Source: an uncultured Gammaproteobacteria bacterium
Lineage (GTDB): Bacteria; Pseudomonadota; Gammaproteobacteria; Steroidobacterales; Steroidobacteraceae
Length of the DNA: 64,000 bases
Assembly (NCBI GenBank): GCA_963834855.1
Contig: CAWIDH010000031.1
Location: 42,779-106,778 of the forward strand
Direction of reading: 5' to 3'
Below the pieces are notes generated by a model. The model searched no databases. It saw nothing but the letters and a program-made list of their open reading frames with translations, and was not told the origin of the DNA. Both the position numbers and the translations under genes were made by a program. Below, in pieces: positions 29,614 through 63,063 of the stretch. Every line of letters starts with the position of its first letter. Within the stretch, counting starts at the first letter, position 1.

Positions 29614-29697
29614 CTAATTCGTCACATGACCATAACTTATTGCCGTCGGCTGCCCCCCTGCAGCGACACTAATCCTGTCGATAAGAACATTTCATGC
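29614..29697 (+). promoter_or_regulatory. two conserved non-coding boxes upstream of the arm-A oxidoreductase operon
   Basis: Box1 is 29614..29644 (CTAATTCGTCACATGACCATAACTTATTGCC). Box2 is 29670..29697 (TAATCCTGTCGATAAGAACATTTCATGC). Both recur almost unchanged upstream of the arm-B copy, while the spacers differ. Confidence 0.55.
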
Positions 29698-29770
29698 GGC
29701 GCAACAGACGCGCGCGGCGCATGCTCTATCCTGATCCGCGTTTGAGAAACGATCAACCGAGGTTGCCAAC

Positions 29771-30804
29771 TTGCCGGAACGCGTGCGCTGGGGAATCCTG
29801 GGCACTGGTCGGATGGCCGCGACCATCGCTGCCGAGCTGGCGACGATGCGCGACGACGGACACGATCTCGTCGCCGTCGCTTCCCGGCAGCATGCAAGAG
29901 CGGTGGAGTTCGCAGCACGCCATCGGGTACCGCATGCACTGGGACAGTACGAGGAGCTGACGCGGGCACCTCAGAGTCGACGCCATCTACGTCGCCACAC
30001 CCCACAGCCTGCACGCCGCGAACATGCGCGCCTGCCTCGCCGGTGGCATCGCCGTGCTGTGCGAGAAGCCGTTCACGCTCAACGCCGGGCAGGCGTTGGA
30101 GGTGATCGCGGAAGCACGACGCAAGCGCCTCTTCGTGATGGAGGCGATGTGGACGCGTTTCCTGCCCGCGATAGACGCGCTCCGTGGGCTGCTCGCCGGG
30201 GACGCGATCGGACGTGTGCGCCTGGTGGTCGGCGGCGGCGCCTTCATTCCCGGACCGCACGGCCGGCAACTACCTGTTCGACAAGTCGCTCGGCGGCGGC
30301 GTCTTGCTCGACGCCGGTGTCTACCTGGTGTCGATGGCCTCGATGATCCTGGGCACACCGGTCCAGGTTCGGGCGGCAGCAAGCCGCGGCGACACCGGCA
30401 TCGACGAGCAGACCACGATGCTGCTCGAACATGCTGACGCCTCGTCAGCCGTGCTCTATGTATCGTTGCGGGCGCGGCGATCGCCGGACCTCGAGATCCT
30501 GGGTGAACGGGGCCGGATCCGGATCGAGGCGCCCGTCTTCAGACCCGCGGCGCTGACGGTCTGGGATGAGGCCGGCAACCCGACGACACGCCAGTACCCG
30601 GTGGCAGGCAGCGGCCACGCATACCAGCTGCGCGAAGTGGCCGCGGCGCTCCGCACCGGTCGTCACGAAAGCCCGATCATGCCGCTCGATGAGACGCTCT
30701 CGATCATGCGCACGATGGATGCGGTGCGTGAGCAGATCGGGGTGCGGTATCCCGACGACGACGCGCCGCCTGCCTGGAGGACCACGTCATGTCCATCGTG
30801 TTGA
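29771..30804 (+). pseudogene. Gfo/Idh/MocA-family oxidoreductase (arm A), two frame breaks near 29960 and 30250
   Basis: Three pieces in frames 29771.., 30024..30437 and 30184..30804. Together they align collinearly with the intact paralog at 61883..62920 (RVRWGILGTGRMAATIA; VLCEKPFTLNAGQA; GGGVLLDAGVYLVSMASMILG). Confidence 0.85.
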
Positions 30805-31661
30805 TCACCGGGTGCAGCAGCGGCATGGGCCACGCTGCGGCGCTCGCCTTCGCGCGGGCCGGAGATACGGTCATTGCATCGATGCGGGATACGGGCAAGG
30901 CGACGACGCTTCGCGCGGCCGCAGAGGACGCGGCGCTCGACGTCCGGATCGTGGCTCTCGACGTGACGCAGCCGGCGACGTTCGCCCGCACGATCGAGTC
31001 GATCGTTACCGACTGCGGACGACTCGACGTCCTGGTCAACAATGCGGGGGTACTCCGGGCCGGTGCGCTCGAGGACCTGGGTGAGCGCGGGCTGCGCGAG
31101 GTCATGGAGGTCAACTTCTTCGGTCCCCTGCTCCTGACCCGGGCCGCGCTTCCCCAGATGCGCCGGCAGCGCAGCGGCTGCATCATCATGATCAGCTCGT
31201 TGTCGGGTATCGCCGGGTTGCCGGGCGACGTGGCATACACGGCCAGCAAGTTCGCCGTCGAAGGCGCGACCGAGGCATTGCGGCACGAGGTCGATCGCTG
31301 GAACATCAGGTTGGCGCTGGTAGAGCCGGGGCTCTACGCCACGCGCATCTTCGATTCGAGTCTGCCCGGTGCCAACCCGCTGCCCGCGGCATATCCCGCC
31401 GACTCACCGTACCGGGTGCTGGTCGAGCACCGGCTGCGCGAGCTGCGCGCCCGGCTACCACAGGCATTCGACCCGCAGCAGGTTGGCGAGCTGCTCGTGA
31501 CCATTTCCCGCTCGGACGGCCGCCAGCTGCGCTGGCCCGCGGACGCAACTGCACGAAAAGTGCTCACCACGATGTTCGCTCAGGACGACGCGGCACGCGA
31601 CGCCTTCCTGCGCGGCGTGTCGGGAACGGACTGGTGGAGCGAAGGCGGAGCGCCGCCGTGA
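30789..31661 (+). CDS. short-chain dehydrogenase/reductase (arm A, SDR-1)
   Basis: VLITGCSSGMGHAAA, NNAG, and SSLSG...YTASKFAVEG (catalytic YxxxK). 290 aa. Confidence 0.9.
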   Translation: MSIVLITGCSSGMGHAAALAFARAGDTVIASMRDTGKATTLRAAAEDAALDVRIVALDVTQPATFARTIESIVTDCGRLDVLVNNAGVLRAGALEDLGERGLREVMEVNFFGPLLLTRAALPQMRRQRSGCIIMISSLSGIAGLPGDVAYTASKFAVEGATEALRHEVDRWNIRLALVEPGLYATRIFDSSLPGANPLPAAYPADSPYRVLVEHRLRELRARLPQAFDPQQVGELLVTISRSDGRQLRWPADATARKVLTTMFAQDDAARDAFLRGVSGTDWWSEGGAPP

Positions 31662-32650
31662 ACCGCCGAATCGTCTTTCCCGCCAGGGGCCAGGTACAGC
31701 TGGAGCCGTTCGAATCGCGCGCGCCCGGCGCGACCGAGATCCGGGTGCGCACGCTCTACAGCCTGATGAGTATCGGCACGGAAACGACGATCCTGCACGC
31801 GAAATACGACCCGGGAACGCACTTCGCGGCGCGATTCTCGTTCCCGCAGCTGAAAACCGGTGTGCAGGCGGTGGCGCTCGTCGAGGAGTCCGGCGCGGGC
31901 GTCACGGAGTTCGAAACCGGCGACCACATTTTCATGCGCATGGCGCACACCTCGCACTGGACGCTCGATGCCGCGCAATGCTCGCGCGTGCCGGACAGGA
32001 TCGATCTCAAGTCGGCCTGCTGGTGCGGCCTCGCCAAGACGGCGTTTCGCACGGCACATGCCTCGCCGTTCGCCCTGGGCGGCACGGTGTTGATCGTTGG
32101 AGCCGGCCCAGTCGGCCAGATGGCCGTGCGCTGGGCACGCTGCTCCGGGCTCGCGAGGATCGCGGTCGTCGACCTGTCCGAGCTTCGACTGCGGCTGGCA
32201 GAGCGCGGCGGCGCGACCGAATGTCATCGCGGCGGGCTCGGTGACCTTCAAGGTGTATTGCTGGATTCGAGCCAGGGGGAGGGCTTCGAGCTCGTCGTCG
32301 ACACGACCGGCAACCCCGCCGTGTTTGCCGCGGCCTTGAGCGTAGCCGCGCCCTTCGGCAAGGTCGTGCTGCTCGGCGACACCGGGTATCCGTCGCAGCA
32401 GCACTTGACCTCCGACCTGATGACCAAGGGACTGACCGTCGTCGCCACACACGACCACCATGATCGCGGGGGCTGGACGCAGCGGCGGATCGACGAGTTG
32501 TTCTTCAAGCTCGTACGCGACGGCGCATTCACGCTCGATGGCCTGATCACGCACGAGTTCGTGCCCGAGGATTGCTCGGCCGCGTATGAGCTCGTCTCGG
32601 ACCGCCGCGACGAGGCCGTCGGGGTGCTGTTCGACTGGACACGGGGTTGA
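31634..32650 (+). CDS. MDR-superfamily (zinc-type alcohol dehydrogenase-like) oxidoreductase (arm A)
   Basis: 338-aa ORF with Rossmann motif VLIVGAGPVGQMAV. A GTG at 31658 overlapping the SDR stop (GTGA) is an alternative start. Confidence 0.85.
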   Translation: MERRRSAAVNRRIVFPARGQVQLEPFESRAPGATEIRVRTLYSLMSIGTETTILHAKYDPGTHFAARFSFPQLKTGVQAVALVEESGAGVTEFETGDHIFMRMAHTSHWTLDAAQCSRVPDRIDLKSACWCGLAKTAFRTAHASPFALGGTVLIVGAGPVGQMAVRWARCSGLARIAVVDLSELRLRLAERGGATECHRGGLGDLQGVLLDSSQGEGFELVVDTTGNPAVFAAALSVAAPFGKVVLLGDTGYPSQQHLTSDLMTKGLTVVATHDHHDRGGWTQRRIDELFFKLVRDGAFTLDGLITHEFVPEDCSAAYELVSDRRDEAVGVLFDWTRG

Positions 32651-32660
32651 GGGAGGCGTC

Positions 32661-33086
32661 GTGATCAAGCTGGCACACGTCTGTATCGAATCGGCCGACC
32701 TCGATGCGACGGAGCGGTTCTACGCCTGCCTCGGACTGCGCCGCCAGTTCGAGTTCCGCAATCCCGCGGGGCTGCTGATCGGCTTCTACCTCCGGTTCGA
32801 CGACGAGACCTTTCTCGAGGTCATCCGCGTCGAACGCGTGCGCGGTGAGGGCGCCGTCCGCCACTTCGCGATCGAAAGCGACGACGTCGGCGTCCTGCGC
32901 GCCCGGCTGCTCGGCGCCGGATTCGAGGCTTCGGAGAAACAGCTCGGCGGCGACCAGACGTGGATGGTGACCTGCCGCGACCCGAACGGCGTGTTCATCG
33001 AGTTGCACGAGTACGGCACGATGAGCATGCAACGGCACGGTGGCACCTGCGTGATCGATTACGTGCCGAGGCCGGCGCAGGCATGA
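32661..33086 (+). CDS. VOC/glyoxalase-family protein (arm A)
   Basis: GTG at 32661 preceded by gagggagg. 141 aa (IKLAHVCIESADLDATERFY ... HFAIESDD ... DPNGVFIELHE). The stop overlaps the next start as ATGA. Confidence 0.8.
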   Translation: MIKLAHVCIESADLDATERFYACLGLRRQFEFRNPAGLLIGFYLRFDDETFLEVIRVERVRGEGAVRHFAIESDDVGVLRARLLGAGFEASEKQLGGDQTWMVTCRDPNGVFIELHEYGTMSMQRHGGTCVIDYVPRPAQA

Positions 33087-33854
33087 ATGCCGACGCTCCG
33101 GTGTGCATCGTGACCGGCGGCGGCGCAGGCATCGGGCGAGCCTGCGTCGAGCTGTTCGCGCAACGGGGCTATCGGGTGGTCGCAGCCGACGTGGATGCCG
33201 CGGCGGCGCAGGCTTCGGCGGAAAGCGCACGGGACAAGCATGGTGTCGATGCGATCGGTGTCGGCTGCGACGTCGCCAATGCGCGCGCGTGCGAATCGAT
33301 GGTGGGAGAGGCGATCGGCCGCTGGAGCCGCGTCGACGTGCTGGTCGGCAATGCCGGAATCCAGACCCCGGGGCGGCTGCTCGATGCGACCGAGTCCGAC
33401 TGGGAACGGCTGGTCGCAGTCAACCTCAAGGGCATCGTGAATTCGTGCCGCGCAGTGCTGCCGGCGATGATCGAGCGCCGCGACGGGCGCATCGTGCTCG
33501 TGTCGTCGATCAATGCCCTGCTCTCGCCTGCCCGGGATGACACTGTACGACATGACCAAGACCGGCGTGCTCGGCATCATGCGCAGTCTCGCCGTCGACC
33601 ACGGGCGCGACGGGATACGTGTCAATGCGGTCTGCCCTGGGGCGACCATGACCGATCATCACATCCGCGCCGCGGCGGCGCGTGGCTTGACCGAAGACGA
33701 GCTGCGTCGCCGCACCGCCGGTTACGCGTTGCTCGGGCGCGTCGCCGAGCCCTCCGAGATCGCCTCCGCCATTCAGTTCCTCGCGAGCGACGCGGCATCC
33801 TTCGTCACCGGCGCGACGCTGGTGGTCGACGGCGGATTCACGGTCCGCGGCTAG
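33083..33854 (+). pseudogene. short-chain dehydrogenase/reductase (arm A, SDR-2), one frame break near 33525
   Basis: The N-terminal part is in the ORF 32960..33928 frame from ATG 33083 (CIVTGGGAGIGRA ... GNAG). The C-terminal part is ORF 33513..33854 (YDMTKTGVLG ... VNAVCPG). It is collinear with the intact paralog at 58830..59597. Confidence 0.85.
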
Positions 33855-35148
33855 AGAGGTCGTCGTCCTTCGTCTCGCGCGCCGCTGCCAGGCCGGCCAG
33901 CGTCAGGAGCGCCGCGCCCGCGAGGTAGTAGCCGACGAACTGCAGTCCGTAGTTCGTCGCGAGCCAGGTAGCAATGTACGGCGCGAGCGACGCGCCGAAG
34001 ATGCCGGCAAGGTTGAACGTGAGCGAGCTGCCCGTATAGCGGACAGAGGTTGGAAACAGCTCCGACAGCACGGTGCCGAGCGGGCCGTATGTCAGTCCTA
34101 TGAGTGACATCCCCAGGATCATCGCGACCACCGTACCGACGAAGCCCGATTCGAAGAGCGGCGCCATCACCAGCCCGAAGGCGCCGATGAGGACCGCGAC
34201 CCAGATGAGCATGCGGCGGCGTCCGCGCTCCGCGAGCCTGGCCGCGATCGGGATGGTGACGCCGAAGGCGATGACGCCGAGCTGCTGTATCAGCAGGAAC
34301 TGCTCGCGCGGGTAGCCCAGCCTGCTGGTGCCCCAGGAGAGCGCGAACACGGTCATGAGGTAGAAGAGCACGAAGGCGACCAGCGAGATGAGCGTGCCTA
34401 CGACGAACGTCCGCGGATGGTCGCGCAGGACGGTGAGCATCGGCACCGGGACGCGCTCGTGCCGGCTGACCGCTTCACGGAACACGGGCGTCTCGTCGAT
34501 CGAGAGCCGCACGTAGAGGCCCACGAGCACGAGCACCGCGCTCGCGAGGAACGGGATGCGCCACCCGAACGAGAAGAACTGCTCGTCGGTGAGCGATCGG
34601 GAGAGCACTATGAAGACGCCGGCCGACAGGAAAAATCCGATAGGGGCGCCGAGCTGCGGGAACATGCCGTACCAGGCGCGCTTTTCCGGCGGCGCATTCT
34701 CGATCGCCAGGATGACGGCGCCTCCCCACTCGCCGCCGAGGCCGATGCCCTGGCCGAACCGGCAGAGCGCGAGCAGGAGCGGCGCCGCAAAGCCGATCGT
34801 CGCATATGTCGGCAGCGCGCCGATCGCCACCGTCGATATGCCCATCGTGAGGAGCGCCGCCACGAGCGTGGTCTTGCGGCCGACGCGGTCGCCGAAGTGG
34901 CCGAAGAGCGCCGACCCGACCGGCCGCGCCAGGAATGCGATCCCGAAGGTGGCGAGCGACGCGAGGGTGGCCGCCGCCGGGTCCGACGCCGGAAAGAACA
35001 GGCGGGGAAAGACGAGGACCGCGGCGGTCGCGTAGATGTAGAAGTCGAAGAACTCGATGGTCGTGCCGACGAGGCTGGCAAACAGCACCTGTCCCGGCCG
35101 GTTTGCCGGCCGGACGACTCCGCTCGTCGAAGACGGGGACGACACCAT
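33838..35148 (-). CDS. MFS transporter, metabolite:H+ symporter (MHS) type
   Basis: 436 aa. VGTTIEFFDFYIYATAA, GHFGDRVGRKTTL, and 12 predicted hydrophobic spans. Present only in arm A. Confidence 0.88.
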   Translation of the reverse strand: MVSSPSSTSGVVRPANRPGQVLFASLVGTTIEFFDFYIYATAAVLVFPRLFFPASDPAAATLASLATFGIAFLARPVGSALFGHFGDRVGRKTTLVAALLTMGISTVAIGALPTYATIGFAAPLLLALCRFGQGIGLGGEWGGAVILAIENAPPEKRAWYGMFPQLGAPIGFFLSAGVFIVLSRSLTDEQFFSFGWRIPFLASAVLVLVGLYVRLSIDETPVFREAVSRHERVPVPMLTVLRDHPRTFVVGTLISLVAFVLFYLMTVFALSWGTSRLGYPREQFLLIQQLGVIAFGVTIPIAARLAERGRRRMLIWVAVLIGAFGLVMAPLFESGFVGTVVAMILGMSLIGLTYGPLGTVLSELFPTSVRYTGSSLTFNLAGIFGASLAPYIATWLATNYGLQFVGYYLAGAALLTLAGLAAARETKDDDLSSRGP

Positions 35149-35235
35149 GCAGCGTTCGGACTCTCGGGCGTCCCCGGACCAGTCTCGGATTACAGCATAC
35201 GTCTTGAACGGCGGTCTGCATGCCGAGCCCTGCCC

Positions 35236-35272
35236 AAAGAAAAACCCCCGCCGGATCGCTCCAACGGGGGTT
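35236..35272 (-). terminator. rho-independent terminator downstream of the RRM-protein gene
   Basis: On the minus strand: AACCCCCG-(14 nt)-CGGGGGTT followed by TTTTCTTTGGG. Confidence 0.7.
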
Positions 35273-35289
35273 CTGCAGGCCCGAGCCCT

Positions 35290-35325
35290 GGGTACGCGGG
35301 TGGCGCTCGCGCCGCCCGCGTACCC
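35290..35325 (-). terminator. strong GC stem-loop immediately 3' of the RRM-protein gene
   Basis: GGGTACGCGGG-(14 nt)-CCCGCGTACCC, a perfect 11-bp stem 20 nt after the stop at 35345. No U-tract. Confidence 0.45.
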
Positions 35326-35344
35326 GGAGCGATAACCGGGACGA

Positions 35345-35608
35345 CTAGAAGCGTCGCGGCCGATCGGATTTCGCCTGTGCCTCGTTCACCTTGAGTGCAC
35401 GACCGTCCATCTGGTAGCCGTTCAGGCTCTGGATGCTGCGGGCGGCATCCGACGGTGACATTTCGACGAAGCCGAAGCCGCGCGGCTGTCCGGTATCGCG
35501 GTCGGTGATCAGGGCGACCGATTCGACGGTCCCGTGCTGCGAAAACAGCGCGCGGACGGCCGCTTCGTCGGCGGAGAAAGGCAGGTTGCCTACGTAGATC
35601 TTTGCCAT
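35345..35608 (-). CDS. RRM-type RNA-binding protein
   Basis: 87 aa. RNP2 is KIYVGNL and RNP1 is RGFGFVEM. Confidence 0.9.
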   Translation of the reverse strand: MAKIYVGNLPFSADEAAVRALFSQHGTVESVALITDRDTGQPRGFGFVEMSPSDAARSIQSLNGYQMDGRALKVNEAQAKSDRPRRF

Positions 35609-35953: not shown

Positions 35954-36943
35954 TTGAACGTTCTCTTACTGAACGAGCACGAGATCCGCCGGTGCGTCTC
36001 GATGACGCCCCAGGCAGCGGACGCCGTGGCGAAAGGCTTTGCGCGCTTGTCGGAAGGCCGTGTCAGCATGCCGCCGGTCGTGCGCGTGGACATCCCGAGC
36101 CATCGAGGCGAGGTCGACATCAAGACCGCCTACATCGAGGGGCTCGACCAGTTTGCGATCAAGGTTGCCTCGGGCTTCTTCGACAATGTGTCGCTGGGAT
36201 TGCCGTACGGCAGCGGGCTGATGCTGCTCATGAGCGCCCGCACGGGTTTGCTCGAGGCCGTCCTGCTCGACAACGGTTATCTCACCGACCTGCGTACGGG
36301 CATTGCCGGGGCGATCGCCGCGCGGTATCTCGCGCCGCAACGCATCGATACGGCGGGCGTCATCGGATCGGGTATGCAGGCCCGCTATCAGCTGCGCGGA
36401 CTCAGGCTGGTGCGGGAGTTCCGGCGCATACTCGTGCATGCACGCAATCCGGCGGCCGCCTCACGCTACGCCGACGAGATGCGCCGCGAGCTGGACGTGG
36501 AGGTGGCGGTGGCCGCGAGCATGGAGGACGTCGTGCGGCAGAGCCAGTTGGTCGTCACGACGACACCGACGCGCGACCCCTACCTTCGCGCCGAGTGGCT
36601 GCACCCAGGCCTGCACGTGACCGCGGTCGGCGCGGACGGTGAGCACAAGCAGGAGCTCCACGCCGACGTGTTCGCGCGTGCCGATCGTATCGCCTGCGAC
36701 AGTCGCAAGCAGTGCTTCAAGCTCGGCGAGCTCCACCACGCGGTCGATGCCGGAATCGTCCGCGCCGAGGGCGAGGTCGTCGAGCTCGGCGAGCTCATCG
36801 GCGGCTCGCAGCGCGGCCGCGCCAGCGACGACGAGATCACCATCTGCGACCTGACCGGCGTCGGGGTGCAGGACACGACGATCGCCGTTCAGACATTTCA
36901 GACGGCCCAGGAGCTGAAGCTGGGCACGTCGTTCGAGACTTGA
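35954..36943 (+). CDS. ornithine cyclodeaminase / mu-crystallin family protein (arm A)
   Basis: ORF 35915..36943. The TTG at 35954 gives MNVLLLNEHEIRR, which matches the arm-B start MSVLILDEQEIRR. Rossmann motif GVIGSGMQAR. Confidence 0.85.
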   Translation: MNVLLLNEHEIRRCVSMTPQAADAVAKGFARLSEGRVSMPPVVRVDIPSHRGEVDIKTAYIEGLDQFAIKVASGFFDNVSLGLPYGSGLMLLMSARTGLLEAVLLDNGYLTDLRTGIAGAIAARYLAPQRIDTAGVIGSGMQARYQLRGLRLVREFRRILVHARNPAAASRYADEMRRELDVEVAVAASMEDVVRQSQLVVTTTPTRDPYLRAEWLHPGLHVTAVGADGEHKQELHADVFARADRIACDSRKQCFKLGELHHAVDAGIVRAEGEVVELGELIGGSQRGRASDDEITICDLTGVGVQDTTIAVQTFQTAQELKLGTSFET

Positions 36944-36992
36944 GGGCTGTCGAGGACCGGCCCGTGGCCGGGATCCCCGTTCTGGAGGCTGC

Positions 36993-38153
36993 ATGCAGAT
37001 CGAAAGGTTTGAAATGGAGCGCACCCAGTGCCTCTATGAAAACGTGGTCGAGCTCAATCTCTCGGAGAGCGGCGTGCTGCCGCTGCGAGCCGACGAGCTG
37101 GTCGAAACGGCGGACGACCGAGAACGGTTTCTAGCCAACTCGCTGTGGTACTGCGAATCGGACGGCTCCCACGTTCTTCGCGAGCGCATCGCCCGGTTCT
37201 ACCCGGACTGCGAGGCCGAGAACGTCACGATCACCAACGGGGGCGCCGAGGCGAACTATGTGACTCTCTGGGCGCTCCTCGGCCGTGAGAATCGGCTCGC
37301 CTGCATGCTGCCGAACTACCTGCAGGGGTGGGGCCTGGGCCGGGCCTACGCGAGTGCAGCCGACGCGTTTCACCTGACGGTGCGTGAGGAGCGCGGCATC
37401 CGCCGGTGGGCGCTCGACCTCGATGCGCTCGATCGCGCAGTGACGCCGCAGACGAAAGTCGTGCTCGTCACGAACCCGAACAACCCGACGGGCGCCGTCC
37501 TGAACGAAGCGGAGATGGACGCGGTCGTCGCCGCCGCACGGCGGGTCGGCGCCTGGCTCGTGGCGGATGAGATCTACCGGGGCGCGGAGGTCGACACCGA
37601 TACGACGACGCCGACGTTCTGGGGCCGCTACGAGCGCGTCATCATCACATCGGGCCTGTCGAAGGCTTTCGGACTGCCGGGCCTGCGGATCGGCTGGATC
37701 GTCGCTCCGCCGGAGTTCATCGAGCAGGCATGGATCCGGCACGATTACCTGACGCTGACGCCGGGTCTGCTCAACGACCGGCTCGCCGCGATCGCGATGG
37801 AGCCGGCGCGCCGGGAGACGATCCTGGCGCGGACGCGAGGCCTCATCCGGAAAAACCTGCCGGCGGTCGAGGACTGGATAGGCGCGCGCCGCGATCTGTT
37901 CGACTACGTGCGGCCGGTCGCCGGCGCCATCGCTTATCTCCAGTACTCGTTCGAGATGGATTCCGTTGCGCTCTTCGACGAGCTGCGCCGCGAGCATTCG
38001 GTGCTGGTGACGCCGGCCGGGCACTTCGGCGCTGCGAACGGCCTGCGCTTCGGTTTTGGCTACGACGTGCAGAAAACGATGGCCGGGCTGGCCAGGCTGG
38101 ATGAGCTGATTGCGAAGCGAGGGCTGCGCGACCGTCGCCGGCGCGAGGCCTGA
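36993..38153 (+). CDS. class I/II PLP aminotransferase (arm A)
   Basis: 386 aa. NPNNPTGAV and the PLP-Lys context SGLSKAFGLPGLRIGW. Confidence 0.88.
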   Translation: MQIERFEMERTQCLYENVVELNLSESGVLPLRADELVETADDRERFLANSLWYCESDGSHVLRERIARFYPDCEAENVTITNGGAEANYVTLWALLGRENRLACMLPNYLQGWGLGRAYASAADAFHLTVREERGIRRWALDLDALDRAVTPQTKVVLVTNPNNPTGAVLNEAEMDAVVAAARRVGAWLVADEIYRGAEVDTDTTTPTFWGRYERVIITSGLSKAFGLPGLRIGWIVAPPEFIEQAWIRHDYLTLTPGLLNDRLAAIAMEPARRETILARTRGLIRKNLPAVEDWIGARRDLFDYVRPVAGAIAYLQYSFEMDSVALFDELRREHSVLVTPAGHFGAANGLRFGFGYDVQKTMAGLARLDELIAKRGLRDRRRREA

Positions 38154-40702: not shown

Positions 40703-40749
40703 GGTAGGCGGCGCTGGCGATGGAGCGGCTGCCGCGCGAGGCGCGTTCC

Positions 40750-51013: not shown

Positions 51014-51056
51014 GGGCGGCGGACACTACGGCATTGGATTGGCACGGTCCAGCGCG

Positions 51057-54665: not shown

Positions 54666-55508
54666 CTAGGACGCACGGGTGGCCGCCGGCCGCACGGCCT
54701 CAACGAAAGCCTCGATCGACTCGTGCGCCATGCGCGCAATCGCGGCTTCGGTCGCGTCGAACGTGATTCGCGCCTTCACAAAGCAACCCCGGCGTGTCGT
54801 GAGCAGGGCCGAGGTCATCTGCGAACCTGGCAGGTCGATGATGGTCATCAGGCAGCGCTGCCTGCCCGCGGGATCTAGAAACCGCGCCTCGTGCTTGACC
54901 CTGGCGCCGGGGCTCGCGTCGATCACCGCCGCGACGACCTCAGCGTACTCGGCAACGACGCGTTGGTCCGCCAGATCCTCCGATGGCAGCGGCTGGCCGT
55001 TGTCGTACACGGAGACTATCGCTTCGATTCGAAGCCCGGCATACGACACGCTGCTTCCCAGTCCCGGCTTCTGCGGCTCGTCGTCCGTGGCATTGAAGAA
55101 GTGCAGCCAGCCCAGTTGGGTGGGCAGCCGCACGCCCGATCGCCGATCGACGAATTCGCGCGGAGCCGGAAGGTCGATCGATGTGCTGTCCGTAGCGAGG
55201 GCATCGAGCGCGAAATAGACGCCCTCCCGAAGGACAACATACTGCTGGTCGACGAGCTGCAAGGTCTCGATGCCCGCGCGGACGAGCTTCTTCTCCGGCG
55301 AAACGATTTCGAGATCGACCAGTCGCCAGCCGATCCTGCGCGCGACCCCCAGGCACCGCAGCACGACCGCCATGACTTCGACAGCGACCGGCAAGGCGGG
55401 CGCGGCTACGACGACCGGCGTGGCCTCGTTGCCGTCCCCGCCGCGTATGGGCAGGTCGACCTGGAAGGCCCGCTTCAGGAAATCACGAAGCGCGAATTCG
55501 TCCGGCAT
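54666..55508 (-). CDS. hypothetical protein, no recognisable domain
   Basis: 280-aa ORF with strong GC3 bias in this frame. The ATG at 55508 overlaps the 3' end of the arm-B aminotransferase by 26 nt. No TM segment or signal peptide seen. Confidence 0.55.
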   Translation of the reverse strand: MPDEFALRDFLKRAFQVDLPIRGGDGNEATPVVVAAPALPVAVEVMAVVLRCLGVARRIGWRLVDLEIVSPEKKLVRAGIETLQLVDQQYVVLREGVYFALDALATDSTSIDLPAPREFVDRRSGVRLPTQLGWLHFFNATDDEPQKPGLGSSVSYAGLRIEAIVSVYDNGQPLPSEDLADQRVVAEYAEVVAAVIDASPGARVKHEARFLDPAGRQRCLMTIIDLPGSQMTSALLTTRRGCFVKARITFDATEAAIARMAHESIEAFVEAVRPAATRAS

Positions 55509-56638
55509 GCGCTCGCCCGATGAAGGCGTCCAGCCTCGCGAGGCCTGCCACCGTCTTGTTCGCGTCGTAGCCGAAGCCCACCCGGATGCCGTTGCTCGCG
55601 CCGAAATGACCGGCGGGGACGAAGAGCACGGAGTGCTCGCGTCGCAACCGGTCGATCAGGTCAACGGAGTCGAAGTCGAACGAGTATTCGAAGTAGGCGA
55701 TCGCGCCGGCGCGCGGCCGCACGTAACTGTAGACGTCCCGGCGCTCATCGAGCCAGTCCTCCACGGCCGGAAGGTTCTGCCGGATGATGCGTCGCGTGCG
55801 CGCGAGGATGGCGTCGCGTCGCGCCGGCTCCATCGCGATGGCCGCGAGACGGTCGTTGAGCAAGCCCGGCGTCAGCGTCAGGTAATCGTGGCGAATCCAG
55901 GTCTGCGCGATGAACTCAGGCGGCGCGACGACCCACCCGATGCGAAGGCCCGGCATTCCGAAGGCCTTCGAGAGACCGGATGTGATGATGACCCGCTCAT
56001 AGCGTCCCCAGAAGGTCGGCGTGATCGCGTCGGCATCGACTTCGGCGCCACGGTAGATCTCGTCGGCGATGATCCAGGCTCCGACGCGCCGTGCAGCGGC
56101 GATGATCGCCGAACATTTCCGCCTCGGTCAGCACCGCACCGGTCGGGTTGTTCGGGTTGGTTACGAGGATTGCCGTGGTCGTTGGCTTCACGGCGCGATC
56201 GAGCGACTCGAGATCGAGTGCCCAGCGCCTCACACCGCCGTCGTCGCGCAGCACGAGACGGAACGCATCAACCGCGCCGGCGTATGCGCCGCCCAGGCCC
56301 CAGGCCTGCAGGTAGTTCGGGAGCATGCACGCCAGCCGTCCCTCGCTGCCGAGCAAGGCCCAGAGCGTCACGTAGTTGGCTTCGGAGCCGCCGTTGGTGA
56401 CCGTGACGTTCTCTGCAGCACAGCCCGGATAGAACTGCGCGATGTGATCCCGGAGCCTTCGCGACCCATCGGATTCCGCATAACAGAGACCTTGCGCGAG
56501 AAAACGCTCGCGCGCCTCGGGTGTTTCGAGGAGTTCTTCCACACGCAAAGGCAATACGCCGCTCTCCGAAAGATTGAGCTCGACCGCGTGCTCGTAGAGG
56601 CACTGCGTGCGCTCCATCTCGAAGGTTTCGATCTGCAT
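55483..56638 (-). pseudogene. class I/II PLP aminotransferase (arm B), one frame break near 56108
   Basis: The N-terminal part is ORF 55997..56638, good up to NPNNPTGAVLTEAEM. The C-terminal part is in the frame of ORF 55483..55956 (AIIAAARRVGAWIIADEIYRG ... SKAFGMPGLRIGW). It is collinear with 36993..38153. Confidence 0.85.
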
Positions 56639-56680
56639 ACAGCCTCCTGGGGGTTTCGCCCTGTGTCACTCGCCGGCGGG

Positions 56681-57670
56681 TCAGGCCTCGAACGGCCGGC
56701 CGAGATTCAGCTCCATTGCTCTGCGAATCGCCTCGACTGCGATCGTCGTGTCCTGCACGCCGACGCCGGTCAGGTCGCAGAGGGTGATCTCGGCGTCGTT
56801 CGCGCGGCCGTCCCGTCGGCCGGCGGTGAGCTCGCCGAGCTCGGACACTCGCTCGACGTCGCCGATGACACCGGCGTCGATCGCGTGGTGCAGCTCGCCC
56901 AGCCTCGCGCACTGCCAGCGGCTGTCGCACGCGATGCGGTCCGCGCGCGCAAAGCAGGTGGCATGGATCTCCTGCTTGTGCTCGCCGTCCGCGCCAACGG
57001 CAGTGATGTGCAGCCCGGGATGCAGCCATTCCGCGCGCAGATACGGCTCGCGCGTCGGCGTCGTGGTGACGACGAACTGGCTCTCCCGCACGACCTGCTC
57101 GACGCTCTCCGCCACCGTCACCTCCACGCCGAGCTCGCGGCGCATCTCGTCGGCGTAGCGCTCGACGGCCGCCGCGTTGCGCCCATGCACGAGTATGCGT
57201 CGGAAGTCGCGGACCAGGCGCAGCCCGCGGAGCTGAAAGCGCGCCTGCATTCCGGAGCCGACGACGCCAGCGGTGTCGATCCGTTGCGGGGCGAGGTACC
57301 GTGCGGCGAGCGCGCCCGCGACCCCGGTGCGCAGGTCGGTGAGGTAGCCGTTGTCGAGCAGCACGGCCTCGAGCAAACCTGTGGTGGCGCTCATGACGAG
57401 CATCAGGCCGCTGCCGTAGGGTAGTCCCTGCGACGGATTGTCGAAGAAACCTGACGCGACCTTGATTGCAAACCGATCGAAGCCCTCGATGTATGCCGTC
57501 TTGATGTCGACCTCGCCACGATGCGCCGGAATGTCGACGCGCACGACCGGCGGCATGCTCACGCGTCCCTCGGACAGCCGTGTGAACCCGACGGCTACGG
57601 CCTCGGCCGCCTCGGGCGTCATCGAGACGCACCGGCGAATCTCCTGCTCATCCAGGATGAGTACGCTCAA
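56681..57670 (-). CDS. ornithine cyclodeaminase / mu-crystallin family protein (arm B)
   Basis: 329 aa, about 80% identical by eye to 35954..36943. Confidence 0.88.
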   Translation of the reverse strand: MSVLILDEQEIRRCVSMTPEAAEAVAVGFTRLSEGRVSMPPVVRVDIPAHRGEVDIKTAYIEGFDRFAIKVASGFFDNPSQGLPYGSGLMLVMSATTGLLEAVLLDNGYLTDLRTGVAGALAARYLAPQRIDTAGVVGSGMQARFQLRGLRLVRDFRRILVHGRNAAAVERYADEMRRELGVEVTVAESVEQVVRESQFVVTTTPTREPYLRAEWLHPGLHITAVGADGEHKQEIHATCFARADRIACDSRWQCARLGELHHAIDAGVIGDVERVSELGELTAGRRDGRANDAEITLCDLTGVGVQDTTIAVEAIRRAMELNLGRPFEA

Positions 57671-57678
57671 GGACGAGC

Positions 57679-58755
57679 TCAGGCCAGCCCGAGCCGGACG
57701 AGGCTCTCCGCCATGGCCGACGCCGCGTCGCCCGCCGGGATGAAGCTCATGCCGAGCGCCTGGCGGGTGCGGGTGTTGTCCACGCCATACCAGCGACCGA
57801 GGTCGGGGACCGCCTGGCGGGCGACCGGATCGAACATCGCGACGAGCTTGACGGCCCAGTCGGGAAGCGAACGCGATGGTACCTTTCGTGCGGCCGGACC
57901 CAGCGCAGAGCGGATCGACTTCGCCATGTCCAGCATCCAGATCGACTCCGATGCGGCGAGGTACCGCGCGCCGGACGTCACGTCGGCCTCGAGCGCGAGC
58001 CGATGCGCGCGTGCGACGTCACGCACGTCGACGCAGGGAAACGACAAGCGCGGGCAGCCCGGATACTTGCCCTTCAGGAACATCTGGATGATCTCGGCCG
58101 AGGCGCCGACGTCCCGGTCGAGCGCCGGGCCCAGGACTAAGCCGGGGTTCACGGACGCGTAGCGCATGCCCGAACGATCGCTGGCCATGAACTCCCGCGC
58201 CGCGCGCTCGGCGAGCGTCTTCGACTTCGCGTAAGCGGTGATGCCCGGGGAGTCGACCCGTGTCCAGTCCGCCTCGGTGTATGGCGTCGTCCGCTCGCGC
58301 GGATGCCCGTACATGATCGCCACCGTCGAGGAGGTCTGCACGAAGCGCTGCACGCCTGCAGCGGCCGCCGCACGCAGGACCCGCAGGCTGCCGTCGACAG
58401 CGGGACGGATCAGCACGCTCTCGTCCTTCGGCTGGGCGCTGGGAAACGGGGACGCGACGTGCAGCACGGCACTGCAGCCCTCGACCGCGCGCGGCCAGTG
58501 ATCGTCCTGAAGTAGATCCGCTTCGACGAACTCGAGAGCGGATGCGTCCGCATGCTGTCCGAGAGTGGTGCGGACCTTGTCGCCTGCTCCCGCTGAGCGC
58601 ACCGTGCCCCGCACGCGGTAGCCGGCGTTCAACATCTCGACCGCGCAGTGCTTGGCGATGAAACCGGAGATACCGGTGATGAGGACTCGATCGGTTGTCA
58701 TCGTGGCCCAGCCAAAAGGGGCGCCGAGGACGATATCGGCGCGCAGTCGGGGCAT
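57679..58755 (-). CDS. NAD-dependent epimerase/dehydratase (dihydroflavonol-reductase-like extended SDR); arm B only
   Basis: ATG at 58755 with GGAGGT 6 nt upstream (alternative ATG at 58701). VLITGISGFIAKH and YAKSK (YxxxK). The listed 633-aa ORF 57679..59580 is an out-of-frame upstream extension. Confidence 0.8.
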   Translation of the reverse strand: MPRLRADIVLGAPFGWATMTTDRVLITGISGFIAKHCAVEMLNAGYRVRGTVRSAGAGDKVRTTLGQHADASALEFVEADLLQDDHWPRAVEGCSAVLHVASPFPSAQPKDESVLIRPAVDGSLRVLRAAAAAGVQRFVQTSSTVAIMYGHPRERTTPYTEADWTRVDSPGITAYAKSKTLAERAAREFMASDRSGMRYASVNPGLVLGPALDRDVGASAEIIQMFLKGKYPGCPRLSFPCVDVRDVARAHRLALEADVTSGARYLAASESIWMLDMAKSIRSALGPAARKVPSRSLPDWAVKLVAMFDPVARQAVPDLGRWYGVDNTRTRQALGMSFIPAGDAASAMAESLVRLGLA

Positions 58756-58829: not shown

Positions 58830-59597
58830 TCAGCCGCGGACCGTGTATCCGCCGTCGACAACGAGCGTCGCGCCAGTGACGAACGATGCCGCATCGCTCG
58901 CGAGGAAGTGAATGGCGGAGGCGATCTCCGCCGGCTCGGCGACCCTCCCGAGCAGCGCGTAACCGGCGGTACTGCGACGCAGGTCCTCCTCGGTCACCCC
59001 GCGCGCCGCCGCCTCGCGGATGTGGTGATCGGTCAGCGTGGCGCCAGGGCAGACCGCATTGACGCGAATTCCGTCCCGCCCATGATCGACAGCGAGGCTG
59101 CGCATGATGCCGAGGACGCCGGCCTTGGTCATGTCGTACAGCGTCATGCCAGGTGGCGCGAGCAGGGCATTGATGGATGAGACGATCACGATGCGACCAT
59201 CGCGCCGTGCCGCCATCGCCGGCAGCACGGCGCGGCAGCAGTTGACCACCCCCTTGAGGTTGACTGCGACGAGTCGCTCCCAGTCGGACTCGGTCGCGTC
59301 GAGCAGTCGGCCGGGCGTCTGGATACCGGCGTTTGCCACCAGGACATCCAACCTGCCCCAGCGGTCGGTCGCCTGGCGCGCCATCGATTCGCAGGCGTCG
59401 GCCTCGGCGACATCGCACCCGATGCCGATTGCATCGACACCATGCATGTCGCAGGCCCGCGCCGCCGAAGCCCGCGCGGCCGCGGTATCCCTGTCGGCGG
59501 CGACGACCCTGTAGCCATGCTGCGCGAAGAGCTCCACACAGGCTCGACCGATCCCGGCACCGCCGCCAGTGACGATGCACACCGGGGCCGTGGTCAT
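58830..59597 (-). CDS. short-chain dehydrogenase/reductase (arm B, SDR-2, intact)
   Basis: 255 aa. CIVTGGGAGIGRA, ANAG, YDMTKAGVLG, VNAVCPG. Confidence 0.9.
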   Translation of the reverse strand: MTTAPVCIVTGGGAGIGRACVELFAQHGYRVVAADRDTAAARASAARACDMHGVDAIGIGCDVAEADACESMARQATDRWGRLDVLVANAGIQTPGRLLDATESDWERLVAVNLKGVVNCCRAVLPAMAARRDGRIVIVSSINALLAPPGMTLYDMTKAGVLGIMRSLAVDHGRDGIRVNAVCPGATLTDHHIREAAARGVTEEDLRRSTAGYALLGRVAEPAEIASAIHFLASDAASFVTGATLVVDGGYTVRG

Positions 59598-60019
59598 GTG
59601 TGCGCCGGTCTCGGCACGTAATCGATCACGCAGGTGCCTCCATGCCGCTGCATGCTCCTTGTATCGTACTCATGCAGCTCGATGAACACGCCGTTCGGGT
59701 CGCGCGTCGTCACCATCCACGTGTGGTCGCCGCCCAGCTGCTTGTCCGAAGCCTCGAACCCGGCGGTCAGCAATCGAGTACGGAGCGCGCCTATATTGTC
59801 GCTTTCGATCGCGAAGTGGCGGACCGCGCCCTCGCTGCGGACGCGTTCGACTCGAATGACCTCGAGGAACGTTTCGTCGTCGAACCGCAGGTAGAAGCCG
59901 ATCAGCAGCCCCGCCGGGTTGCGGAACTCGAACTGACGACGCAGGCCGAGGCAGGCGTAGAACCGCTCGGTGGCACCGAGGTCCGCCGATTCGATGCAGA
60001 CGTGAGCCAGCTTGATCAC
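59594..60019 (-). CDS. VOC/glyoxalase-family protein (arm B)
   Basis: 141 aa, about 87% nt identity by eye to 32661..33086. Confidence 0.8.
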   Translation of the reverse strand: MIKLAHVCIESADLGATERFYACLGLRRQFEFRNPAGLLIGFYLRFDDETFLEVIRVERVRSEGAVRHFAIESDNIGALRTRLLTAGFEASDKQLGGDHTWMVTTRDPNGVFIELHEYDTRSMQRHGGTCVIDYVPRPAHT

Positions 60020-60029
60020 GACACCTCCT

Positions 60030-61046
60030 TCAACCCTGCGTCCAGTCGAAGAGCACGCCGACGGCTTCCTCGCGGCGCTCCGACACCAGCGCGTAGGCCG
60101 CCGCGCAGTCCTCGGGTGCGAACTCGTGCGTGATCAGCCCATCGAGCGCGAACACCCCGTCGTGCACGAGCTTGAAGAACAGCTCGTCGATGCGCCGCTG
60201 CGTCCAGCCGCCGCGATCGTGGTGGTCGTGGGTGGCGACTATGGTCAGACCCTTGGTCATCACATCGGAGGTCAGGGACTGCTGCGCGGGAAATCCGGTA
60301 TCGCCGAGCAGCACCAGCTTGCCGAACGGCGCAGCGACGCCGAGCGCCGCGGCGAACACGGCCGGGTTGCCGGTCGTGTCGACCACCAGTTCGAACCCCT
60401 CGCCCTGGCTGGTATCGAGCAAGGTATCGCGCAGGTCGGCGAGACCGCCGCGATGGCAGTCAGTGGCACCGCCGCGCTCTGCCAGCCGCAAACGAAGCTC
60501 GGAAAGGTCGACGACCGCGATCCTCGCGAGCCCGGCGCATCGGGCCCAGCGCACGGCCATCTGTCCCACCGGACCGGCGCCGACGATAAGGACCGCGCCG
60601 CCGAGCGTGAACGGCGCGGCATGCGCCGTTCGAAACGCCGTCTTGGCGAGACCGCACCAGCAGGCAGATTTGAGATCGATTCCGTCCGGCACGCGCGAGC
60701 ATTGCGCGGCATCGAGCGTCCAGTGCGAGGTATGCGCCATGCGCATGAAGATGTGGTCGCCGGCTTCGAACTCCGTGACGCCGGGGCCGAGTTCCTCGAC
60801 GATGGCCACCGCCTGCACACCTGTCTTCAGCTGCGGGAACGAGAATCGTGCCGAGAAATGCGTTCCCGGGTCGTATTTCGCGTGCAGAATCGTCGTTTCC
60901 GTGCCGATGCTCATCAGGCTGTAGAGCGAGCGCACCCGGATCTCGGTCGCGCCGGGAGCGCGCGGCTCGAACGGCTCCAACCGTACCTGCCCTTTGGCAG
61001 GGAAGACGATCCGGCGATTCACGGCGGTGAACCGCCTTCGCTCCAC
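60030..61046 (-). CDS. MDR-superfamily oxidoreductase (arm B)
   Basis: 338 aa, about 90% identical by eye to 31634..32650. Confidence 0.85.
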   Translation of the reverse strand: MERRRFTAVNRRIVFPAKGQVRLEPFEPRAPGATEIRVRSLYSLMSIGTETTILHAKYDPGTHFSARFSFPQLKTGVQAVAIVEELGPGVTEFEAGDHIFMRMAHTSHWTLDAAQCSRVPDGIDLKSACWCGLAKTAFRTAHAAPFTLGGAVLIVGAGPVGQMAVRWARCAGLARIAVVDLSELRLRLAERGGATDCHRGGLADLRDTLLDTSQGEGFELVVDTTGNPAVFAAALGVAAPFGKLVLLGDTGFPAQQSLTSDVMTKGLTIVATHDHHDRGGWTQRRIDELFFKLVHDGVFALDGLITHEFAPEDCAAAYALVSERREEAVGVLFDWTQG

Positions 61047-61892
61047 CAGTCCGTGCCCGACACGCCGCGCAGGAAGACGTCACGTGTCTCGTCATCCTGC
61101 GCGAACATCGTCGCCAGCACCTTGCGTGCCGTGGCGTCCGCGGGCCAGCGCAGCTGCCGGCCGTCGGAGCGGGAGATCGTGACCAGCAGTTCGCCGACTT
61201 CGCGCGGGTCGAACGCCTGCGGCAGCCGGGACCGCAGCTCTCGAAGCCGGTGCTCGATCAGGGGTCGGTACGGCGAGTCCGCGGGCATACTCGGCGGGCA
61301 GCGGACCGGTGGCGGGAAGGCTCGAATCGAAGATTCGCGTCGCGTAGAGCGCGGGCTCGACGAGCGCCAGCCTGATGTTCCAGCGATCGACTTCGTGGCG
61401 CAGCGCCTCAGTCGCGCCTTCGACTGCGAACTTGCTGGCGGTGTATGGCACGTCGCCCGGCAACCCGGCTAGTCCTGAGAGCGAGCTGATCATGATGATG
61501 CAGCCGCTGCGCTGCCGGCGCATCTGGGGAAGCACGGCCCGGGTCAGGAGCAGGGGACCGAAGAAGTTGGTCTCCATGACCTCACGCAGCCCACGCTCGC
61601 CGAGATCCTCGAGCGCACCTGCCCGCAGCACGCCCGCATTGTTGACCAGCACGTCCAGCCGGCCGCAGTCGGCAACAATCGACTCGATCGTGCGCGCGAA
61701 TGAGTCCGGGCGCCTTACGTCGAGCGCGACGATCCGGATGTCCAGCCCGGTCGCGTCTGCGGCCGCGCGTAGTCCGATCCCCTTGCCGGTATCGCGCATC
61801 GAGGCGATGACGGTATCTCCCGCGCGCGCGAACGCGAGCGCCGCGGCCTCGCCCATGCCGCTGCTGCACCCGGTGATCAACACTACGGACAT
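61019..61892 (-). pseudogene. short-chain dehydrogenase/reductase (arm B, SDR-1), one frame break near 61290
   Basis: ATG at 61892 (MSVVLITGCSSGMGEAAA) in the frame of ORF 61092..62051. The C-terminal 89 aa are in ORF 61019..61288. It is collinear with the intact 30789..31661. Confidence 0.85.
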
Positions 61893-62920
61893 GACGGATA
61901 CCTCGGGGTAGGGCGAGCGCCTTCGTCGGGATAGCGCAGACCGATCTGCTCGCGGACCGCGTCCAGGGTCTGCATGATCGAAAGCGTCTCGTCGAGCGGC
62001 ATGACCGGGCTCTCGAGACGGCCGGTGCGCAGCGCAGCGGCCACCTCGCACAACTGGAAGGCGTGGCCGCTGCCCGTCACCGGGTAATGGCGTGTCGTGG
62101 CGTTGCCAGCCTCGTCCCAGATGGTCAGCGCTACGGGCCGGAACACCGGCGCCTCGATGCGGATCCTGCCTCGCTCGCCGAGGATTTCCAGGTCCGGCGG
62201 TCGGCTTGCGTGCAACGAAACGTACAGCATGGCCGCCGAGCCGTCCGCCTGTTCGAGCAGCACCGTGGTCTGCTCATCGATGCCTGTGTCCCCGTGGATC
62301 GCAGTCGCCCGTACCCTGACCGGCGTGCCCAGGATCATCGACGCCATCGACACCAGGTAGACACCCGCGTCGAGAAGGACGCCGCCGCCGAGCGACCGGT
62401 CGAACAGATAGTGGCCAGCGGGGCGGTCGGGGATAAAGGCGCCGCCGCCGACGATCAGTCGAAGGCGTCCGATCGCTTCCTCGGCGAGCAGCCGGCGGAG
62501 CGCGTCGATTGCCGGGAGGAAGCGGGTCCACATCGCCTCCATGACGAACAGGCGCTTGCGCCGCGCGACCGTGATTACGTCCGCTGCCTGTCCGGCGTTG
62601 AGCGTGAACGGCTTCTCGCACAGCACGGCCGTGCCGGCGGCGAGGCAGGCGAGCATGTTCGCGGCATGCAGGCTGTGTGGCGTCGCGACATAGATCGCAT
62701 CGACTCGTCCCTCGCGTGCCAGCTCCTCGTACTGTTCCAGCGCGGAGGGTATCCCATGGCGCGCGGCGAACTCCGCGGCCCTCGCATGTTGCCGCGAGGC
62801 GACGGCGACGAGCTCGTGACCGTCGCCGCGCAACGCGGCGAGCTCGGTGGCGATCGTCGCCGCCATTCGGCCAGTTCCGAGGATTCCCCAGCGCACGCGT
62901 TCCGGCAAGGTGGCGGCCAC
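61883..62920 (-). CDS. Gfo/Idh/MocA-family oxidoreductase (arm B, intact)
   Basis: 345 aa. RVRWGILGTGRMAATIA and VLCEKPFTLNAGQA. Confidence 0.9.
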   Translation of the reverse strand: MAATLPERVRWGILGTGRMAATIATELAALRGDGHELVAVASRQHARAAEFAARHGIPSALEQYEELAREGRVDAIYVATPHSLHAANMLACLAAGTAVLCEKPFTLNAGQAADVITVARRKRLFVMEAMWTRFLPAIDALRRLLAEEAIGRLRLIVGGGAFIPDRPAGHYLFDRSLGGGVLLDAGVYLVSMASMILGTPVRVRATAIHGDTGIDEQTTVLLEQADGSAAMLYVSLHASRPPDLEILGERGRIRIEAPVFRPVALTIWDEAGNATTRHYPVTGSGHAFQLCEVAAALRTGRLESPVMPLDETLSIMQTLDAVREQIGLRYPDEGARPTPRYPSCP

Positions 62921-62983
62921 GGCTGCCTCGATTCTCAGGGTGCGTCAGGATAGGCCATGCGGACGCCGCGCGACGGTTGCACT

Positions 62984-63063
62984 GCATGAAATGTTCTTAT
63001 CGACAGGATTACCGCCACGCAGGTTGACCGGTGGCGATAAGTTATGGTCATGTGAAGAATTAG
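62984..63063 (-). promoter_or_regulatory. arm-B copies of the two conserved non-coding boxes
   Basis: The reverse complement of 62984..63011 is identical to Box2 of arm A (28/28). The reverse complement of 63033..63063 matches Box1 at 29/31. Confidence 0.55.

Follow-up and report, generated by a model that had tools for sequence, protein, structure and literature searches.

The stretch analysed here, referred to as the window, comprises 64,000 nucleotides of a contig from an uncultured gammaproteobacterium of the family Steroidobacteraceae (GenBank assembly GCA_963834855.1, contig CAWIDH010000031.1, positions 42,779 to 106,778), and carries a 33-kb quasi-palindrome whose two inverted arms, A (+ strand) and B (- strand), each encode by Pfam a Gfo/Idh/MocA protein, an SDR, an MDR, a VOC protein, a second SDR (SDR2), an OCD protein and a class I/II aminotransferase (AT). 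Self-BLASTN of the whole window, on which the inverted-block coordinates and nucleotide identities given here are based, confirmed that the inverted similarity is real: one block pairs 29613-33852 with 63064-58832 (83.9% over 4247 nt), and a second pairs 35954-38101 with 57670-55529 (78.1% over 2155 nt). A first, sequence-only reading had described the arms as carrying the same genes in the same order. Pfam agrees gene for gene on the seven shared families and each of the two blocks is collinear, but the arms are not collinear throughout, their middles being non-homologous: between SDR2 and OCD lie an MFS transporter and an RRM protein in arm A only, and an NAD-epimerase in arm B only, so that the arms have drifted to complementary content. 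The identities that had been judged by eye proved accurate (88.8% at the amino acid level for MDR, 79.9% for OCD, and 86.5% of nucleotides for VOC), as did the placement of the arm starts at conserved sequence boxes, whose matches in the window are essentially confined to these two starts, and of the arm ends inside the aminotransferase genes, where similarity stops 15-17 codons short of both stop codons.

The sequence between the arms had been taken for a partly mirrored accessory core inserted between two copies. The mirroring stands for the paralogous TonB-dependent receptors (TBDR_A and TBDR_B), which match over 42898-43580 versus 54013-53325 at 73% and over 44001-45855 versus 52937-51077 at 66%; they are its sole mirrored part, as tblastx among the inner core parts revealed no other mirrored sequence, and the centre of the palindrome is the convergence of two non-repeated genes, STAND and TBDR_A. 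The insert itself is not borne out by relatives (contigs denoted here L001, L009 and so on). Kelch, TPR and receptor genes come after the cluster in L040, L044 and L047, whereas hyp280 (a conserved 280-aa protein), optionally an MFS gene, TBDR_B and STAND come after it in L042 and L043; hyp280 is always next after the B-type aminotransferase, and the central junction of TBDR_A and STAND recurs in L044 and L046 at 95-96%. Because both halves of the core are syntenic with relatives, it represents the downstream half of each of two locus versions, Kelch-TPR-TBDR_A belonging to A and hyp280-TBDR_B-STAND to B. Two gene identifications also change: an open reading frame at 45863-46384 called Sel1-like is the C-terminus of the STAND-WD40 gene, and arm B is flanked on its right side by a + strand bicupin gene starting at 63299.

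Scans of public genomes and metagenome contigs located the Gfo-SDR-MDR-VOC-SDR module in many Steroidobacteraceae-like and other gammaproteobacterial metagenome-assembled genomes (MAGs), usually with a divergent TonB receptor and once per locus, and recovered no second genome with both arms. Within the locus stretches visible, to which all statements on single versions in relatives refer, a single A-type cluster stands beside the upstream receptor (TBDR_up) in L009 and L047. L009 is collinear with 21628-33854 at 85% and encodes TBDR_up, module 1 (Gfo to SDR2), a P450, a phosphoribosyltransferase, RRM, epimerase, OCD and AT, with no counterpart in the window for the sequence downstream of its AT; L047, a JGI contig in which every gene is intact, matches 28200-38153 at 95%, i.e., all of arm A including the MFS/RRM insert, in the order arm A, TPR, Kelch, receptor and convergent STAND gene. 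L044 is collinear with 33939-51015 at 93-96% and spans the central junction. A single B-type cluster is found in L040 and in L042, in different contexts. The order in L040 is MR/MLE, TBDR_up, B-type cluster, hyp280, kinase, Kelch, TPR, Kelch and receptor. L042, L045 and L046 are parts of one 764-kb contig that reads LysR', MR/MLE', a receptor of its own (TBDR816), about four metabolic genes, bicupin (this side ~99% identical to the window), B-type cluster, hyp280, MFS, TBDR_B, STAND-1, STAND-2, convergent TBDR_A (95%), inverted Kelch/TPR and an IS630-type transposase; it reproduces the window from 42.8 to 64 kb with two insertions, the extra STAND copy and the MFS gene.

The phylogenies of the paralogous pairs (neighbour-joining with bootstrap), which the sequence-only reading had proposed as a means of dating the duplication, show that the arms are not mutual closest relatives. 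In the module-1 tree A groups with L009 (82-85%) and B with L040 and L042 (100%), L017, L001 and L002 falling outside; the OCD and AT tree joins A with L041 and B with L040 (100% each), and the left-flank tree joins the window with L009 (89-93%), then L040. Arm B is 89.6-93.8% identical to the cluster of L040 and 92.9% to that of L042, versus 78-84% to arm A. The split between A and B is thus older than the divergence of the window organism from the lineages of L009 and L040. Of the "old duplication-inversion" proposed earlier, the age holds (synonymous divergence, dS, of 0.35-0.96 and a split predating the sampled lineages), but duplication and inversion in place finds no support. As the versions separated before the window organism parted from several sampled relatives, each with only one of them, they would be old, stable paralogues or xenologues, not products of a recent duplication.

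We consider it rather probable that the structure consists of two versions of one TonB-receptor-linked catabolic locus with separate lines of descent, standing tail-to-tail and both under selection. Each version would comprise a divergent promoter with two boxes, the Gfo/SDR/MDR/VOC/SDR operon, a cyclodeaminase, an aminotransferase and, further down, a TonB receptor. Version A (24.7-45.9 kb, + strand; LysR, MR/MLE, TBDR_up, operon, Kelch, TPR, TBDR_A) would be the copy in the ancestral neighbourhood, and version B (63.3 to 45.9 kb, - strand; bicupin, operon with epimerase, hyp280, TBDR_B, STAND NTPase) a second copy of different descent that came to adjoin the resident one, being either laterally acquired or brought there by a rearrangement. 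The operon cassette of ~8.5 kb may later have been exchanged between lineages, with one breakpoint at the operon 5' end. Each version would import, oxidise or transaminate a related but distinct substrate, LysR-type control would act through the shared boxes, and the inverted arrangement would be a by-product and no switch.

Cassettes and flanks give discordant signals. L040 and L045 are 79% identical in the MR/MLE-TBDR_up region and 92-94% across the cassette, boxes and hyp280 included. The window differs from L045 by 7-10% up to 62934, ~15 nt upstream of the Gfo_B start, and by 8 of 1066 nt beyond it, an abrupt fall to <1% divergence from the L042/L045 organism (compared over 62300-64000) that looks like a sharp recombination breakpoint at the operon 5' end. 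TBDR816, the B flank in L045, groups with L017 (97.5%) outside the clade of A, L009 and L040, whereas the B cassette falls inside it; the B flank thus branches much deeper than its cassette, and flank and body of each copy therefore do not seem to share one history. This discordance indicates that the operon cassette was exchanged between lineages at least once, and argues against one fold-back duplication of flank and cassette together.

An ancient fold-back duplication of the whole locus in place in a common ancestor, with different genes lost from each copy, an entire copy lost in most descendant lineages and later passage of the B cassette into L040, nevertheless has several observations in its favour, although we regard it as somewhat doubtful. 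It would account for the complementary content (epimerase in B, RRM and MFS in A, hyp280 on the B side, Kelch-TPR on the A side) and for L040 holding hyp280, Kelch, TPR and receptor in one series. Both outer flanks consist of ancestral upstream neighbours, since bicupin lies between MR/MLE and TBDR_up in L017, LysR', MR/MLE' and TBDR816 lie beyond bicupin in L045, and a second LysR is present on the source contig; the dS of the receptor pair (~1.0) also resembles that of the AT pair (0.96). Against it, besides the fact that the copies are not each other's closest relatives, TBDR816 and TBDR_up are only 76% identical. A co-duplicated flank would be expected to retain at least 84%, the identity of the B cassette to the A/L009 clade, given that orthologues differ less in TBDR_up than in module 1 (89% versus 85% identity between the window and L009). 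The model also requires that L001-L003, L009, L017 and L040 each lost a copy independently and that further transfers took place. The second LysR (P0331; 95% amino acid identity to the window LysR) lies outside the window on the same 163,051-nt source contig and hints that version B has its own regulator and that the symmetry continues beyond 64000; all LysR pairs are 95.4-96.2% identical, and the flank type of this gene is thus not discriminated.

A broader form of the exchange is possible, though we advance it tentatively: the ~8.5-kb operon, from the boxes through hyp280, may be a discrete cassette that moves between the homeologous loci of different species and breaks repeatedly in its 5' control region. 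The 33-kb structure may then be the interior of a larger palindrome (55-60 kb) in which both loci are complete, each having a LysR, a dehydratase and a receptor of its own, and which is kept by functional complementarity.

Several points weigh against separate descent of the two versions. The pairing of A with L009 has a bootstrap support of only 82-85%, and the tree without L040 and L042 weakly favours A with B (70%). Both arms occur on one molecule only in the window: L044 and L047 end short of arm B, and the contig of L042 has the IS630-type transposase and another STAND gene at the place of arm A. The direction of transfer, its mechanism and the way the versions came to stand tail-to-tail are inferred, and substrate and regulation are deduced from family-level annotation only. 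Finally, if the five frameshifts described below are real, neither arm is complete, each broken gene having an intact partner in the other arm.

All correctly framed arm genes have a ratio of nonsynonymous to synonymous divergence (dN/dS) of 0.09-0.25 in the A-B, A-L009 and B-L009 comparisons (the mis-framed SDR2 A-B block being left out), which indicates that both arms are constrained by purifying selection. Between the arms dS is ~0.5 in module 1, 0.66 in OCD and 0.96 in AT, and the receptor pair has a dN/dS of 0.36. A five-taxon test of shared derived sites counted 19 sites common to A and B versus 6-16 in five control pairings, with a single cluster at 31662-31873 and no significant excess; taken with a longest perfect arm-to-arm match of 52 bp, these counts point to no concerted evolution and to little substrate for homologous recombination.

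The latter bears on the proposal that recombination between the arms inverts the 17-kb core and changes the genes behind each promoter, for which we see scarcely any room. The arms do form long inverted repeats, in which perfectly matching stretches reach 52 bp, and a short conversion tract is possible at 31650-31900 (A-B identity of 0.91 versus 0.82 for A-L009, with 5 of the 19 A=B sites). The arms, however, are only 78-84% identical, and at such divergence RecA-dependent recombination drops by orders of magnitude. Among the genes of 27-64 kb there is neither an invertase nor an integrase, and all core genes keep their own orientation and, apparently, their own promoters. Moreover, the centre has the same orientation relative to the arm carried in the window, L042/L046, L044 and L047, and a single orientation in every related assembly makes an invertible core unlikely.

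The five frame breaks in the arms (two in Gfo_A, one each in SDR2_A, SDR1_B and AT_B) are private +1 insertions relative to the intact genes of L047 and L040; further breaks affect both core receptors, STAND, TBDR_up, P450 and two genes outside the palindrome. They might be real and the redundant copies decaying, the arms surviving by complementing each other, and it is true that every broken arm gene is intact in the other arm and that the palindrome has about twice the density of breaks seen in 1-29 kb. This is nonetheless improbable. None of the five insertions occurs in relatives of 90-95% identity, whose genes are intact, dN/dS is 0.1-0.25, and GC content at third codon positions (GC3) holds up to the left and right of every break. 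Nor are breaks confined to the palindrome: P450 is affected, and three long genes outside the arms (9717-12082, 16467-19234 and TBDR_up at 27081-29535) have apparent single breaks, at about half the density inside the palindrome. L009 has eight private 1-nt insertions in 4.3 kb of its single-copy cluster, and the MFD MAGs, which by their record names include L001 and L009, are Nanopore-only assemblies with one Medaka polish (PMC12313526). L040, L042 and L044 also seem to be Nanopore-only, judging from their Flye-style contig names. Private +1 insertions with intact GC3 and dN/dS beside them make consensus error the likelier source, and the arm frameshifts are probably Nanopore errors.

That the palindrome is an assembly chimera, in which populations carrying arm A and arm B were joined through a common centre, appears very unlikely. 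The window does derive from a metagenome assembly, indel errors are numerous in its close relatives, which were assembled from Nanopore reads alone, and none of the other single assemblies compared contains both arms. However, L044, with the inner half of arm A, runs through TBDR_A and STAND into sequence like that upstream of STAND-2 in L042, and the L042 contig spans TBDR_A, STAND, TBDR_B, arm B and bicupin, so that overlapping independent assemblies tile the whole of 28-64 kb. An arm divergence of 16-22% speaks against a fold-back read artefact, and GC and GC3 are even across both arms.

As the sequence-only reading had stated, no mobility gene or tRNA marks the borders. The window has no tRNA gene and no Rfam match, no gene of 27-64 kb has a recombinase, integrase or transposase domain, and self-BLASTN disclosed no direct repeats at the palindrome borders. 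Window GC is 66.4%; both arms and the B side are flank-like (64-73%), with the exception of the Kelch-like gene (38-41 kb), and GC skew shows no switch ascribable to an inversion. The features of a genomic island or integrative element (integrase, tRNA or att site, direct repeats, deviant composition) are accordingly absent.

Table 1. Features of the two locus versions and their flanks in the window.
Feature	Position	Strand	Remarks
Left flank of version A	24715..29535		Pfam; collinear with L009 (85-88%), L040 (84%) and L047 (95%)
LysR	24715-25671	-	
MR/MLE-family dehydratase	25779-26987	+	
TonB receptor TBDR_up	27081-29535	-	One frame break near 27330-27425
Arm A boxes	29613..29696	+	TCTAATTCGTCACATGACCA at 29613-29632; CGATAAGAACATTTCATG at 29679-29696
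Arm A module 1	29613..33854	+	Self-BLASTN, Pfam
Gfo/Idh/MocA (Gfo_A)	~29781-30804	+	+1 insertions at 29974 and 30247
SDR, arm A	30789-31661	+	
MDR, arm A	31634-32650	+	
VOC, arm A	32664-33086	+	
Second SDR (SDR2_A)	33083-33854	+	+1 insertion at 33529
Arm-A-only insert	33838..35608	-	Pfam, NCBIfam
MFS metabolite/H+ symporter	33838-35148	-	
RRM RNA-binding protein	35345-35608	-	
Arm A module 2	35954..38153	+	Homology to arm B stops at 38101
OCD-family cyclodeaminase (OCD_A)	35954-36943	+	
Class I/II aminotransferase (AT_A)	36993-38153	+	
Downstream half of version A	38153..45878		Present in L044 (96%), L040, L046 and L047
Kelch-like gene, 849 aa	38153-40702	+	52-59% GC
TPR gene, 665 aa	40750-42747	-	
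TonB receptor TBDR_A	42910-45878	+	At least 2 frame breaks
nSTAND1-WD40 NTPase, single gene	45863..51013	-	At least 2 frame breaks; WD40 tandem units at 46743-48554
TonB receptor TBDR_B	51057..54008	-	TBDR_A paralogue, 50-69% aa; at least 3 frame breaks
405-nt spacer	54258-54663		MFS gene at this place in L042 and L043
hyp280, conserved 280-aa protein	54666-55508	-	No family match
Arm B module 2	55483..58755	-	Homologous to arm A over 55529-57670
Aminotransferase (AT_B)	55483-56638	-	+1 insertion at 56113
OCD_B	56681-57670	-	
NAD-epimerase, arm B only	57679-~58755	-	
Arm B module 1	58830..63064	-	
SDR, arm B	58830-59597	-	
VOC, arm B	59594-60019	-	
MDR, arm B	60030-61046	-	
SDR1_B	61019-61898	-	+1 insertion at 61288
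Gfo/Idh/MocA (Gfo_B)	61883-62920	-	
Arm B boxes	62985-63002 and 63045-63064	-	
Bicupin, right flank of version B	63299..64000, leaves window	+	Divergent from Gfo_B; 391 aa in L045; ~99% to L045

Both arms start with two boxes, box 1 reading TCTAATTC.TCACATGACCA and box 2 reading CGATAAGAACATTTCATG, located at 29613/29679 and 63064/63002 and conserved in both arms as well as in L009 and L017; their presence in both divergent promoters suggests common regulation. The window contains no further copies at up to 3 mismatches save one weak box-2-like match, CGATTAGAAAATGTCATG (3 mismatches, 24655-24672, - strand), upstream of a thiamine pyrophosphate (TPP)-enzyme gene, which could add a third member to this regulon. 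Among the arm enzymes OCD_A passes the NCBIfam model PRK08291 "cyclodeaminase" (456.5 bits against a cut-off of 408) and remains below that of EutC (398 against 472); all scores of the other arm enzymes against NCBIfam equivalogs (IolG, Tdh, VioD/GntC and others) are far under their cut-offs, which justifies only superfamily-level assignment. Named pathways (inositol, ectoine, capreomycidine-like) were weighed and not adopted; cyclodeaminase is the sole equivalog-level NCBIfam name. The neighbourhood further encodes LysR, an MR/MLE dehydratase, the TPP enzyme, an aldehyde dehydrogenase, a 2-keto-3-deoxy-6-phosphogluconate-type aldolase, an MFS symporter and TonB receptors. From these families we infer a receptor-linked catabolic locus, in which an imported small molecule would be oxidised and transaminated or deaminated.

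The genes around the centre vary among relatives. The nSTAND1-WD40 NTPase would have ~1720 aa if intact, with a WD40 tandem unit of 126 nt, and relatives carry one to three paralogues (L042 12973-22424; L046 467-5641). In the window a STAND-2-like body (96%) is preceded by upstream sequence of STAND-1 type, as though a deletion had fused two tandem copies. Its N-terminal 188 aa match PDC-S60 weakly, the sole result of a PADLOC scan of the core proteins, and no role in defence is claimed. The Kelch-like gene is duplicated in L040 (L040 13260-20205; the Kelch/TPR region is 38153-42747 in the window, 6649-8790 in L041 and 6851-11998 in L047), Kelch and TPR are inverted together beside the IS630-type transposase in L046 (7144-14152), and the 665-aa TPR gene takes three different positions relative to OCD and AT in L041, L047 and the window. 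The receptor that follows Kelch in L047 (L047 3801-6752; - strand as stored, co-directional with arm A in window orientation) is TBDR_B-like, with 83.6% identity to window 51052-54013 and 66-76% to TBDR_A, and receptor alleles at this position seem to be swapped between close strains. The arm A MFS gene is 86.8% identical to that of L042, which lies there between hyp280 and TBDR_B. In L043 (5522-7129) the B-type aminotransferase is reduced to its last ~250 nt with hyp280, preceded by a phage-integrase fragment that no other relative has beside its hyp280 block. The P450 gene (frame-broken in the window) and the gene for the phosphoribosyltransferase are found at a distance of 20 kb upstream from the cluster in the window (12128-13988), inside it in L009 (12284-14140) and beside RRM in L041 (4136-5957); the modules of this neighbourhood apparently shuffle between relatives. 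A short inverted match of 10190-10573 to 21260-20874 (70%) joins two aldehyde-dehydrogenase paralogues and is unrelated to the palindrome.

The structure resembles, in part, several known systems. TonB-dependent-receptor-linked catabolic loci, the "CUT loci" described in Xanthomonas, share with it a TonB receptor, an MFS transporter (here in arm A and L042), cytoplasmic enzymes and a nearby LysR; unlike them, the present locus has oxidoreductases, a cyclodeaminase and an aminotransferase in place of glycoside hydrolases, and occurs twice, inverted. The tandem inversion duplications of Salmonella likewise have two close multi-kilobase copies in opposite orientation with asymmetric losses. They are, however, recent, nearly identical and unstable, whereas the arms here are 16-22% diverged, are not mutual closest relatives and enclose a non-repeated centre of two convergent genes. 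As in laterally acquired xenologous or paralogous operon pairs, the second copy has another affinity and cassette and flank identities are discordant; in contrast to the usual pairs, there is no integrase, tRNA, insertion sequence or compositional mark at the borders, and the second copy brings its whole homeologous neighbourhood and directly adjoins the first. Sex-chromosome palindromes, whose large inverted arms undergo arm-to-arm gene conversion, also have functional genes around a spacer; here, in contrast, concerted evolution is absent and the divergence of the arms is about that of orthologues from different species.

The structure is therefore an ordinary paralogous or xenologous pair of catabolic loci with an unusual tail-to-tail arrangement and an informative mosaic history. 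Striking long-range symmetry of this kind can mislead, as it suggests duplication-inversion and a flip-switch where relatives point to separately descended versions and operon-level exchange. It also provides a worked example for the annotation of long-read MAGs, in which alignment of paralogues and a 95%-identical contig of short-read type (L047) pinpoint private +1 insertions. Most relevant to the biology of these Steroidobacteraceae-like soil bacteria, the TonB-linked operon (Gfo/SDR/MDR/VOC/SDR, with or without epimerase, cyclodeaminase and aminotransferase) is widely conserved and uncharacterised, and represents a candidate pathway deserving substrate assignment.

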